This document shows, piece after piece, positions 48,234-52,698 of a stretch of DNA of 64,000 nt. The stretch is from assembly GCA_963663475.2 (NCBI GenBank), contig CAXXJV010000001.1, forward strand, positions 416,001 to 480,000. The letters are read 5' to 3'. The stretch is from Candidatus Cloacimonadales bacterium. Lineage in GTDB: Bacteria; Cloacimonadota; Cloacimonadia; Cloacimonadales; JAFGVF01. Below the pieces are notes generated by a model that was not told where the DNA came from, ran no database searches, and was given only the letters and a program-made list of their open reading frames with translations. Numbering within the stretch: the first letter of the stretch is position 1; every line of letters starts with the position of its first letter. Made by a program: the position numbers and the translations under genes.

Positions 48234-48295
48234 TATGGACTTATGGCATCCTTGCCATAAGAAAAATGTGGAAGCAAGGATGCTTCCACTCCATA
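48234..48295. repeat. REP-like double-hairpin element (family 3)
   Basis: TATGGA..ATGGCATCCTTGCCAT..GTGGAAGCAAGGATGCTTCCAC..TCCATA, homologous to 27375-27433. Confidence 0.8.
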
Positions 48296-48374: not shown

Positions 48375-49535
48375 TTAATCGATTACATAAGTTGTTAGAG
48401 GTGGGAAACCATTAAATTCAATTGAACTATAGGAGGTAGTATATGCTCCAGTTGATAGGAAATAAACTCTATCACCTATAGCCAAATTTAGAGGAAGGTC
48501 ATATTTAAAATCTTCATACATTATATCCTGAGAATCACAGGTTGGTCCTGCCAAAATACACTCTTCAGTTTCTCCCCGTCTTTCAGTGAAAATTGGGAAC
48601 TTAATAGATTCATCAAGAGTTTCAATCAAACCACTGAATTTGCCTATATCAGTAAATATCCAGCGATTTAAGGCTGTTCGAGACTTTCTTGATATCAGAA
48701 CTACTTCACTAACAATAACGCCTGCATCAGCCACTAATGAACGACCTGGTTCTATCAATATTTCAGGAATATCATCACCAAAGTCTTCGTTTAAATATCT
48801 TTTAATTTCTGAGGCATATACTTCCAACTCATTAGTTCTAGAAGTATAGTTAGCTGGGAAACCACCGCCCATATTAATCATTTTTAATTTAATGCCTTCT
48901 TCTTCTTCAAGCCAAGAGAAGATATACCTAACTTTGGCAATTGCTGCATCCCAAGATGCAATATCACGTTGTTGAGAACCTACATGGAAGGATATACCAT
49001 AAGGTTCAAGACCTAATTTTTTAGCAAGAACAATTAAATCACATGCCATATCAGATTGACAGCCAAATTTTCTGGAAAGAGGCCAGTCTGCTGTTTCAAC
49101 CCCTTCAGTTAATATACGAACAAAAACTCTTGAGCCTGGAGCAGCTTTAGCAATATTTCTCAAATCAGCTTCTGAATCAGAAACAAAGAGTCTGACACCA
49201 GCCTCGTAATGTTCACGGATATCTTTAGCTTTTTTGATAGTATTCCCATAGCTTATTCTATCAGCAGAAATACCTAGAGCAAGAAGTTTTCTTAATTCAT
49301 AGATTGATGCTACATCAAAATTTGAACCTAAGTCTCTCAAGAGACTTAACACTTGGGTAGCTGGATTAGCTTTGACAGCATAGTGGATTTTAGCGTAGGG
49401 AAAGTTTCTAGTAAGCTCTTCATACTTTTCTTTAATTGTACTTAATTTGACTACTAAGAATGGAGTTTCTTTGTCTTCAGAAAAGGCAAGTAATTTTTGC
49501 CATTCAGCTTTGGTAATATAGGAATCTCTTAACAT
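48375..49535 (-). CDS. Fold-type III PLP ornithine (lysine/ornithine) decarboxylase
   Basis: YAVKAN, FDVAS, LSRKFG, SFHVGSQ, GGGFP, EPGR, GPTCDS, GAYT, FNGF. Confidence 0.93.
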   Translation of the reverse strand: MLRDSYITKAEWQKLLAFSEDKETPFLVVKLSTIKEKYEELTRNFPYAKIHYAVKANPATQVLSLLRDLGSNFDVASIYELRKLLALGISADRISYGNTIKKAKDIREHYEAGVRLFVSDSEADLRNIAKAAPGSRVFVRILTEGVETADWPLSRKFGCQSDMACDLIVLAKKLGLEPYGISFHVGSQQRDIASWDAAIAKVRYIFSWLEEEEGIKLKMINMGGGFPANYTSRTNELEVYASEIKRYLNEDFGDDIPEILIEPGRSLVADAGVIVSEVVLISRKSRTALNRWIFTDIGKFSGLIETLDESIKFPIFTERRGETEECILAGPTCDSQDIMYEDFKYDLPLNLAIGDRVYFLSTGAYTTSYSSIEFNGFPPLTTYVID

Positions 49536-49562
49536 GATAAATCCTCCGATTTTAATATTTTT

Positions 49563-49649
49563 TTATAAAAACCCGAGGAGGTTTTTGATTAGTAAAGACA
49601 TGTAGTTAGGCGGTTGATATCTAACACCGCTTAGAAGTCTATTACTCAT
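49563..49649 (-). CDS. Candidate 28-aa leader peptide of ornithine decarboxylase (MSNRLLSGVRYQPPNYMSLLIKNLLGFL)
   Basis: GGAGG 7 nt before ATG; stop lies 27 nt before the ODC ATG; 3' end forms a hairpin containing CCTCC. Confidence 0.55.
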   Translation of the reverse strand: MSNRLLSGVRYQPPNYMSLLIKNLLGFL

Positions 49650-49853
49650 AGCATTTCCTCCAATTTTAAGTTCTTGAAATACTTTCAAATTGCAAGAGGT
49701 ATTTTTTAGCAAGAAAAAAAATAATTATTTTTATAAGTAGAGATATCTTCTTTATTTATAGTTAATTAAAGCTTGACACTTTCTTAGAAATATATTAAAA
49801 AGTTTAATAGAAATTTCCTAAAACTAAAACATTATAAGAGAGGATTTAAAAAG

Positions 49854-50769: not shown

Positions 50770-51179
50770 AATCCCAGATAGTGTAGTAGAACTTTAGTGA
50801 AGAGTGCAGATTCTTCTTTAAACCCAGATAGTGTAGTAGAGCTTTAGTGAAGAGTGCAGATTATTCTAGCAAAATAGCTTACAGAATTTTGACGCATATA
50901 TTTTATATATTCGGAGAAATTATGGAAGTTACTTTTGCAGAAGAATATAGTGCTGTTCACAAAGGTCTACTGCATTATTGGGTTAAAATCCTACTGCACT
51001 ATTTTTGTTTAACCCAAATGGTGCAATAGAGCTTTAGAGAAGAGTGCTAGATTCTTTTAGCAAAATAGCTTACAGAATTTTGACGCATATTTTTTATATA
51101 TTCGGAGAAATAATGGAAGTTACTTTTGCAAAAGAATATAGTGCTATTCTCAAAGAACTATTGCATTATTTGGGTTTAA
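50770..51179. mobile_element. Tandem cluster of MITE family 1 (one partial and two full copies: 50820-50986, 51008-51179)
   Basis: Near-identical ~170-bp units with TIRs, joined at TA/TTAA-rich junctions. Confidence 0.85.
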
Positions 51180-51324
51180 CCACTTACGTCAAAAAAGATA
51201 CCACTAAATTAAATAATCTTGTTGAATGGAGAAAAACCGATTATTTGTCTTACTGTTATAAAATGACATTGAAAATTATGTATAAGATTAAGAAATCAAA
51301 ACAAATAATAAAGAAGAGGTTTTT

Positions 51325-52698
51325 ATGGTAAAAAGAATTTTACTAGCACTTTTCGTGCTTAGTTCTTTAAGCATAGTCTTAGCTTTAGACAGGTTAAACT
51401 TAGACAAAGCTAAAGAAATGGTATTAGAAAACAATCTAGAATATCTTTCCGTTCAAGCAAGTAGAGATAAAGCAGACTACAATAAAAAGTCAGCCTTTTA
51501 TTCCTATTTACCTAGTGGAAATTTTACAGGTAGCCATACACGCTATGAGCCAGAGCTCATGATGTCAGGTAAGTATAGTAATCAGTTTGGATTAACTCTA
51601 AATCAGCCCTTATTAGCTAATGGAAGTATATATTATAGGAATAAAGTTCAAGCAGAAAATAGTAAATCAGCCAATATTAGTGTAAGGCAGAAAAGAGTAG
51701 AGCTTTTAACTCAAGTTGAGATTTTATACTACAACGTCTTAGAATCCCAGAAGAACTTGCAATTAGCCCAGACCAATGTTGAGAGAGCTTGGAAAGCCTA
51801 TGAAAGTGGTAAAATAAGCTTTCAGCAAAATGTGCTATCTAAAGCTCAACTACTTAGATTACAGGTTGATGCCACTAACAAAGCAATAAGCCAGCTCAAT
51901 AGCAAAAACGCTTATTCTGATGCTTATCGTGCCTTGCAATTATACCTAAATAGTGATGATGATTTTAGTTTAGAGGAAGTAGATTTCATCGCAGAAGAAA
52001 AATCAAAAGATTATCTGAAGATGTCTGGAAAATTTGCCTTGAATGATCAAGGAGCTTTAATTAAGGATACTAAGGCCTATACTAAGCTGTTAAATAAACT
52101 TCTTACTACTTCAATCCAAGAAAATCCTCAAATAGCCATAGCTAAAACAGGTATCAATCTAGCCCAATATTCTTTGAAGCAAGAGCAAAGTTCTTTCCTT
52201 CCTAGTCTAAATTTATCTCTAAATCATAATTGGTCAGCCAATGAACTTGCAACAGACTATGAAGACCAAACAAGTATAATGCTCAATGCCTCAATATCTT
52301 TCTTCCCTTTAATGAATAAAGTCCATAATGTTAATTCTCAAAAAATGAATCTCAAACAAGTGAACTATAATTACCAAGCCCTATTGAAAGATATCAAATC
52401 AAGAATTGAAACATCTTTAAACAACTATTTGATATCTTTGGAAAGAATAGAGCTAGCAGGTCAAACACTAAGACTTAACCAAGAGATATTTAAAGAGCAA
52501 GAAGCAAAGTTTCAGAACAATTTAATTTCAGTCGATGACTATTTAGATTCTCAAGCAGAGCTGGATCAAGCCAGCCTTCAATATAATTCTTCCCTTTATG
52601 GCTTCCTCAAAAGCCAATCTAATCTAGCCTATACAATAGGGTTTGAGGACTCTAGCCAAATCGCAAATATAATTACACTAATTCTAGAGGAGCAATAA
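51325..52698 (+). CDS. TolC-family outer-membrane efflux protein
   Basis: Signal peptide, two OEP repeats (SYLPS, SFLPSLNL). Confidence 0.9.
   Translation: MVKRILLALFVLSSLSIVLALDRLNLDKAKEMVLENNLEYLSVQASRDKADYNKKSAFYSYLPSGNFTGSHTRYEPELMMSGKYSNQFGLTLNQPLLANGSIYYRNKVQAENSKSANISVRQKRVELLTQVEILYYNVLESQKNLQLAQTNVERAWKAYESGKISFQQNVLSKAQLLRLQVDATNKAISQLNSKNAYSDAYRALQLYLNSDDDFSLEEVDFIAEEKSKDYLKMSGKFALNDQGALIKDTKAYTKLLNKLLTTSIQENPQIAIAKTGINLAQYSLKQEQSSFLPSLNLSLNHNWSANELATDYEDQTSIMLNASISFFPLMNKVHNVNSQKMNLKQVNYNYQALLKDIKSRIETSLNNYLISLERIELAGQTLRLNQEIFKEQEAKFQNNLISVDDYLDSQAELDQASLQYNSSLYGFLKSQSNLAYTIGFEDSSQIANIITLILEEQ

Follow-up and report, generated by a model that had tools for sequence, protein, structure and literature searches.

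A short upstream open reading frame (uORF) and an anti-Shine-Dalgarno (anti-SD) element within it, both located immediately before a predicted ornithine decarboxylase (ODC) gene of Candidatus Cloacimonadales, very likely form a real and so far undescribed leader-peptide attenuator. All coordinates given here are positions in the window, i.e., the 64,000-nt stretch of contig CAXXJV010000001.1 (Candidatus Cloacimonadales bacterium) that was analyzed, and leader and ODC lie on its minus strand. A sequence-only reading of the window had described a GGAGG-N7-ATG uORF at 49649-49563 that ends 27 nt before the ODC start, and this description was confirmed: the spacer between SD and ATG is 7 nt, and the uORF stop lies 27 nt before the ODC ATG at 49535. 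The features of the region are collected in Table 1. A search of full texts, mainly open-access papers and for small-ORF surveys their main text, returned no PP[N/D] leader with an anti-SD before an ODC gene.

Table 1. Features of the leader-ODC region (positions in the window).
Feature	Position	Strand	Basis
CTTGCTA, a -35-like box of the putative promoter for leader and ODC	49707..49713	-	inferred from conserved spacing
Shine-Dalgarno GGAGG of the uORF	49657..49661	-	sequence; GGAG(G) before ATG in 12/12 leaders
Leader uORF, 28 codons, peptide MSNRLLSGVRYQPPNYMSLLIKNLLGFL	49563..49649	-	ATG at 49649, stop ends at 49563
Hairpin over codons 7-14; probably incidental or minor	49610..49630	-	-7.2 kcal/mol
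Pro13-Pro14-Asn15, predicted ribosome pause site	49605..49613	-	conservation, codon-type changes
Terminator-like hairpin of the sequence-only reading; not a terminator	49567..49586	-	-6.0 kcal/mol
Anti-SD CCTCC	49577..49581	-	CTCC or CCTCC in 12/12, 8-30 nt 5' of SD
SD-sequestering hairpin (OFF state)	49543..49581	-	-13.1 kcal/mol; in MFE and centroid
Shine-Dalgarno GGAGG of the decarboxylase	49543..49547	-	sequence
Fold III (alanine-racemase-fold) ornithine or lysine/ornithine decarboxylase, predicted, 386 aa	48375..49535	-	PF02784 and PF00278
Intrinsic-terminator-like hairpin 3' of the decarboxylase gene	48268..48289	-	terminator scan

The structural relatives of the decarboxylase were led by the lysine/ornithine decarboxylases 5gjm and 2plj, followed by eukaryotic ODCs and AZIN1, and in the family profile search the gene product fell below the LysA cut-off. 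Its closest named relatives come from Candidatus Cloacimonadales and Cloacimonadota. One neighboring gene is divergent and the other convergent, so the ODC unit looks monocistronic. A TTGC box is found 57-66 nt 5' of the uORF ATG in all 12 of the leader loci described below. In most Cloacimonadota loci that lack the leader, a TTGACA/TTGC box precedes the ODC start by about 58-80 nt, and this spacing of the promoter-like box points to the leader as the first ORF on the ODC message. The box in the window was not called by a sigma-70 scan. An in-frame TTG start at 49712, giving a 49-codon ORF, was rejected because it has no SD, overlaps the promoter-like box and is not common to relatives. The same genome encodes a second fold-III decarboxylase on contig C2 (G000:C2:109955-111040) with 24% identity to the ODC, which is thus not necessarily the sole putrescine route.

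ODC loci were drawn from 61 related genomes, 232 genomes of the phylum, and one genome and one metagenome collection. After removal of fragments and distant paralogues, 204 loci with an ODC N-terminus gave 158 distinct loci, 153 of which carried 200 nt or more of upstream sequence. Of the 102 ODC matches in the phylum, only some were taken as loci, and the pattern search spanned all 232 phylum genomes. The leader, with Pro-Pro at codons 13-14 and Asn or Asp at codon 15, was present in 12 of the 13 distinct loci with ODC identity of at least 75% (about five lineages of one clade rather than 12 independent cases, the motif being defined on those same leaders), and in none of the 140 distinct loci below 75%. 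A uORF conserved in relatives, as the sequence-only reading had anticipated, is therefore found. In a tree of 31 selected ODCs, the 13 sequences make up one starred clade (100/99), and the confinement of the leader to this well-supported clade agrees with the proposed origin separate from that of SpeFL. Locus L009 is nested within the clade and has no PP leader, so that one gain and one loss provide the simplest account; it keeps the promoter-like box, at -137, together with a leader of about 100 nt and a TTG-started frame that runs into the ODC start region.

The leader pattern was matched in 18 of the 232 phylum genomes. Eleven of these matches were the ODC leaders, and the seven others were apparently due to chance (the reverse-pattern control gave three), for which reason occurrence of the same leader before non-ODC genes was discarded. 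Occurrence in other phyla was also rejected, since a looser test returned only two near-identical gammaproteobacterial loci in which the frame overlaps a promoter-like stretch. The leader peptide had no Pfam or NCBIfam match, an exact-sequence look-up of three leader peptides in a protein collection found 0 of 3, and Rfam, the speF leader family included, returned nothing for the leader with E values of up to 10 allowed, and nothing at gathering score in nine loci. By crude ORF calls, just one of the 18 short SD-led uORFs in the genome has Pro-Pro, and this is the ODC leader itself.

Several elements at other loci were observed during these searches. Pseudomonadaceae ODC loci (L064, L066-L068, L070-L072, L074-L077, L079, L087, L095 and L102) have in common a conserved non-coding segment, about 40 nt long, that lies about 60-110 nt before ODC, and the Halopseudomonas ODC loci L086, L097, L103 and L109 share another conserved stretch; the four loci tested had no Rfam match at gathering score. 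A short SD-led ORF or element with a DLTFA/EVTFA-like peptide start is repeated (window 51044-51331, G000:C1:23670, C1:1755438, C2:66551), sits just before several unrelated genes and resembles a small mobile or REP-like repeat. At G000:C1:2095297, an 18-codon SD-led uORF, possibly a leader peptide, ends 34 nt before a gene that we take to be a tryptophanase/tyrosine phenol-lyase.

The pattern of codon changes among the 12 leaders indicates that the leader ORF is under peptide-level selection centered on codons 12-15. Pro-Pro occupies codons 13-14 in all 12 without gaps, at a fixed distance from the ATG, as in the aligned examples MSNRLLSGVRYQPPN (window locus), MNTRLFRNVIYQPPD (L008) and MFVIRRWDTQIHPPD (L011). 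All four Pro codons are used at each of the two positions; on the tree, the two codons have undergone at least four and at least six third-position changes and none at positions 1-2, amounting to at least 10 silent and 0 replacement changes. These silent-only changes uphold the Pro-Pro stall site predicted earlier. Codon 15 is Asn or Asp only, and codon 12 is Gln or His. The suggestion that an RYQPP motif would be conserved held in part, as PP[N/D] at codons 13-15 is conserved but the three most distant members read QxHPPD. Coding selection, for which the sequence-only reading had proposed a check, was supported by pN/pS values from the eight closest rows (mean pairwise, uncorrected, from pairs that are not independent) of 0.12 for codons 9-15 and 0.30 for codons 2-15, vs about 1.0 for codons 16-21; the value for ODC itself is 0.08. 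Additionally, the uORF frame is open in 12 of 12 leaders, and each of the other two frames is stopped within 20 codons in 11 of 12. Behind codon 15 lies a free linker: uORF length ranges from 28 to 35 codons, the stop codon falls between 28 nt upstream of the ODC start and 14 nt within the gene, and the C-terminal sequence, frame and stop position of the peptide vary among the 12.

Two alternative readings were considered. In the first, the Pro codons would be kept as RNA, their CC-N-CC pairing with the SD of the leader itself; it was rejected because one of the 12 leaders has T as the middle base at Pro13, and peptide selection thus fits the Pro codons better. Unregulated translational coupling, in which the uORF would merely set a constant low ODC level, would explain the plain geometry (an ATGA overlap in L011, TGA-ATG in L012) and a leader that is dispensable in L009 and absent in the 140 more distant loci, but pure coupling would give no reason for PP[N/D] to stay at a single position while changing only silently, and we regard this reading as very improbable.

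The sequence-only reading had further noted that a CCTCC in the last uORF codons is complementary to the ODC SD. This pairing, between 49581-49577 and 49547-49543, was recovered in both MFE and centroid structures (z -2.33; 5 of 200 shuffles as stable), with CTCC or CCTCC retained in every leader, and across the 12 leaders the SD hairpin ranges from -6.9 to -13.1 kcal/mol. By crude ORF calls, CCTCC occurs 18-60 nt upstream in 2 of the 232 GGAGG-led ORFs of the genome; this arrangement, like the Pro-Pro in the uORF, thus exceeds what chance would give. Every uORF runs through the anti-SD, which falls in three different uORF reading frames among the 12; as it is kept in three frames and with gaps of 8-30 nt, the element is under selection as RNA.

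The other two hairpins described earlier fared differently. A terminator-like hairpin is indeed present at the end of the uORF, but it was not called by the terminator scan, is weak (-6.0 vs -13.1 kcal/mol for the SD hairpin) and is not conserved, falling to -0.1 in L006, where the SD hairpin remains at -12.7, and to 0 in L008 and L011. On these grounds, its reading as an intrinsic terminator was rejected, and the proposed switch between this hairpin and the SD hairpin was not upheld; in our model, it is the translating ribosome that competes with the SD hairpin. Within codons 7-14, GCGGT (49630-49626) can pair with ACCGC (49614-49610) as claimed, but this hairpin ranges from -9.7 to 0 in the 12 leaders, is absent in L008 and has no compensatory changes in the register originally given; due to this lack of conservation, it was dismissed as a switch element.

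The effect of ribosome position was modelled by folding only the RNA 3' of a ribosome assumed to cover roughly 15 nt downstream. With the P site at codon 14, the cost of opening the ODC SD was 5.3-10.7 kcal/mol (median 7.7) in the 12 leaders, and it fell by more than 2.5 once the ribosome was at codons 17-23, with minima of 0.2-4.0 kcal/mol (median 1.95). Among 47 leaderless low-GC controls, the median cost was 3.1, with five reaching 5.3 and two reaching 7.7. Blanking CTCC cut the cost by 0.6-7.3 kcal/mol; the small drops, of only 0.6 in L012 (the least) and about 2 in L001-L002, count against the attenuator model. An alternative model that allows pairing across the ribosome gave lower costs in L008, L011 and L012 (2.8-4.0), partly because the anti-SD also pairs with the leader's own SD.

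We consider a cis-acting translational attenuator with negative logic upstream of ODC to be highly probable. By folding and conservation, the ODC SD is held in a hairpin with the anti-SD inside the leader ORF, and in the model a ribosome passing about codon 20-23 would melt this hairpin and allow ODC to initiate. A ribosome pausing at Pro13-Pro14-Asn/Asp15, as the motif would predict, would stop short of the anti-SD and block following ribosomes. The anti-SD starts 30-41 nt 3' of the second Pro codon, i.e., beyond the paused ribosome, and such a pause would thus keep ODC off, with the hairpin modelled to stay shut as long as the pause lasts; Rho may then end the untranslated message. On this geometry, a pause at Pro-Pro probably corresponds to ODC OFF and read-through to ON.

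Other data from the genome bear on the proposed pause. According to PMC13602936 and PMC4140641, E. coli ribosomes deprived of EF-P show some of their strongest pauses at PPN and PPD; PMC8503589 and PMC10319736 serve as general background only. PPN is depleted in the ORFs of the genome (26 seen vs 51.5 expected) and PPD marginally so (37 seen vs 48.2 expected, P 0.05). EF-P is present, with a lysine-type loop, and Rho was over the cut-off in 4 of 5 genomes searched. As separate observations, a second Rho-like frame (G000:C1:491018-491980; 359 aa; 328.6 bits, below the cut-off) is present in addition to the canonical rho and was not seen in the four other genomes searched, and at G000:C1:628368-630540 (L221) efp is followed by a small unlisted ORF and then by a gene that we take to be arginine-deiminase-like.

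With regard to the signal, a polyamine acting in product feedback (most likely putrescine, the product of the enzyme) is the candidate that we favor, with a likelihood close to but short of even. High putrescine or another polyamine would lengthen the pause, either by competing with EF-P or by acting inside the exit tunnel jointly with residues 1-12 of the peptide, and the lengthened pause could then exert product feedback on ODC, by analogy with eukaryotic Pro-Pro uORFs. The OFF-on-pause geometry fits product feedback rather than ornithine induction. The more specific proposal, that polyamines slow EF-P-dependent Pro-Pro-X synthesis in the leader and thereby shut the same-fold ODC, as an independently evolved form of the eukaryotic device, is tentative, and we hold it as possible rather than probable.

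The content of pathway genes was examined with this signal in mind. Neither proC nor ornithine cyclodeaminase was found in any of 18 genomes, and argG was over the cut-off in 0 of 5; the idea that ODC is switched off to spare ornithine for Pro or Arg synthesis was rejected, since without these genes there would be no motive for doing so. Ornithine aminotransferase was present in 4 of 5 genomes, and ornithine looks like a catabolic product here. There was no deoxyhypusine synthase in 18 genomes and no EpmA over the cut-off in the source genome. Thus, no direct chemical link from polyamine to EF-P was seen, and a hypusine-like or beta-lysyl link was set aside on the basis of a search limited to modifiers of these two kinds. 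Polyamine inhibition of EF-P in bacteria was likewise not found in the literature search. The source genome and its genus have no speD, so the ligand would be putrescine or cadaverine, whereas spermidine is the polyamine named for the eukaryotic precedent; the source genome has only a partial, weak spermidine-synthase match (26.6 bits). Genomes with speD carry the three QxHPPD leaders, and genomes without it the eight genome-derived YQPP leaders, a co-occurrence that kinship may explain.

Upstream of speD, a separate conserved frame was observed (L232, L233, L237-L266). It is apparently 45-55 codons long, starts 30-33 codons before its motif, ends 46-168 nt before speD, and shows codon-type variation and a C-terminus of the type DDEEV-L[VLA][EQK]LS[AV]F[TSN]ATL[TS]P. 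The frame is present in 31 of 31 Cloacimonadota loci with a located speD start (32 were read, and the pattern was tuned on them), speD itself being present in 67 of 232 phylum genomes, and four of the loci gave no Rfam match. This frame is a candidate second polyamine leader peptide of the same phylum, absent from the source genome.

The main rival to the polyamine reading retains the OFF-on-pause switch and takes Pro-tRNA supply, possibly with Arg-tRNA at codons 4-6, as the signal. Under it, an apparent Pro/Arg auxotroph would sense peptide supply and make ODC only when food and arginine-derived ornithine are plentiful, a possibility to which the missing proC and argG and the presumed arginine-deiminase-like gene near efp lend support. 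Seven of the 8 closest rows encode Pro13 by CCG, yet CCG makes up 342 of 14351 genomic Pro codons; CCG or CCC is found in 10 of 12 leaders, and no tRNA-Pro(CGG) was found in the genome. However, there are just two control codons, L012 and L141 carry common Pro codons only, and neither Asn/Asp at codon 15 nor a fixed position would be needed for simple starvation sensing. Arg4 is kept in nine rows, with Arg-Arg at codons 5-6 in the other three, but AGA is the commonest Arg codon in the genome. Altogether, we judge this rival to be unlikely. As described in the available text of PMC8129111, codon choice tunes PP pausing in E. coli.

It is quite unlikely that the leader reports EF-P activity or the general elongation state (i.e., EF-P modification, Mg2+ or growth rate), with no direct sensing of polyamines. 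PP[N/D] is an EF-P-type motif, EF-P has a lysine-type loop, and proline-containing leaders such as MgtL sense Mg2+ (PMC12856214, available text), but the benefit of turning ODC off when EF-P is weaker is not obvious, and the partial constraint on residues 1-12 (pN/pS of 0.30 over codons 2-15) exceeds what a bare PPX would need.

Substrate induction, in which ornithine (or lysine) would relieve the pause, or would arrest the ribosome near the stop as in SpeFL and turn ODC on, is improbable. A ribosome at codons 21-28 would keep the hairpin open, the deiminase route supplies ornithine, and three members have an Arg-Arg close to the N-terminus that is reminiscent of the sensor loop of SpeFL. In SpeFL, however, arrest takes place at the last codons (10.1101/604074, in the parts available), and the C-terminus, frame and stop of the Cloacimonadales leaders are unconserved. 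The leaders have no HIRRXXH motif, no Phe-rich effector and no conserved end, in line with the earlier statement that the peptide does not resemble SpeFL, and SpeFL-like ornithine induction is unlikely.

In the available portions of the literature compared, bacterial leaders of polyamine genes (SpeFL, MdtU) switch their gene on. The Cloacimonadales leader would instead be built to switch a biosynthetic ODC off upon pausing at an EF-P-type motif, like the Pro-Pro uORFs of animals and fungi. If polyamines are the signal, one feedback trick would have converged across domains, and the leader would provide a 130-nt reporter for whether polyamines antagonize EF-P, a question that the literature search did not find addressed. 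If the EF-P-based proposal is true, Pro-Pro uORFs of ODC homologues would have a fifth, prokaryotic origin, here coupled to an anti-SD, with EF-P acting as a bacterial polyamine sensor. If the signal is Pro-tRNA, the leader would still represent a family of leader peptides not described before, from a phylum with few cultured members.

Compared with known classes of attenuators, the leader ORF has its own SD and is under coding selection, and in silico it has the conserved SD-sequestering helix, dependent on ribosome position, of a translational attenuator; the conserved GC-rich hairpin followed by a U-tract of a transcriptional attenuator was not found. SpeFL/orf34 is similar in that a short leader ORF precedes an ornithine decarboxylase and its translation unfolds an SD-sequestering structure (10.1101/604074; PMC6386406; available text of both). 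In the same sources, the HIRRXXH ornithine-sensor loop of SpeFL (residues 10-16; 10.1101/604074) has no counterpart in any of the 12 Cloacimonadales peptides, and SpeFL, with 34 residues, has a Phe-rich C-terminal effector and arrests at the stop codon (10.1101/604074), whereas the conserved site of the Cloacimonadales leader is internal and its C-terminus about neutral (pN/pS ~1). Arrest means ON in the available account of SpeFL, and a pause is predicted to mean OFF here; the spacer given there for SpeFL/orf34 is 257 nt vs 27 nt here. The enzymes differ as well, as the sequence-only reading had stated, speF being of fold I (AAT-fold) and the Cloacimonadales ODC of the PF02784/PF00278 type, and PF01276 was not found in any of the five leader genomes searched.

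MgtL of mgtA (PMC12856214) and CutF of Rhodobacter (PMC9973294) are, in the parts of these papers available, also proline-containing uORFs in which ribosome progress controls the next gene, with CutF acting on an RBS stem-loop (PMC9973294). They differ in their signals, Mg2+ or Cu, and in that their gene is turned ON when translation slows; moreover, CutF is exported as a protein. In E. coli, the uORF MdtU of mdtJI is needed for the polyamine response and overlaps a stretch of RNA for which pairing with the RBS downstream is predicted (PMC7815308); in the same source, it induces a spermidine exporter, is conserved at its C-terminus and ends 106 nt upstream.

The closest parallel is eukaryotic. 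As described in PMC2811004, ODC homologues of animals and fungi acquired uORFs on four occasions, and almost all of these uORFs contain two adjacent prolines. Repression by the AZIN1 uORF is stronger with spermidine; it acts through a PPW stall and eIF5A (PMC9082881 and PMC8705083, available text). Like the eukaryotic uCC, the Cloacimonadales leader ORF contains two adjacent prolines and precedes an ODC homologue of the alanine-racemase fold; a PPX pause needing the EF-P/eIF5A family, and repression on pausing, are predicted for it as well. The eukaryotic uCC has a non-AUG start, output through scanning/queuing and PP near the C-terminus, whereas the Cloacimonadales leader has an ATG with a strong SD in 12 of 12, an anti-SD hairpin, and PP in mid-peptide (13-14 of 28-35 codons), fixed from the N-terminus. 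AZIN1 has W after PP where the Cloacimonadales leader has N or D, and no sequence homology was seen. The Cloacimonadales leader thus resembles the eukaryotic uCC in its logic and is not a member of it.
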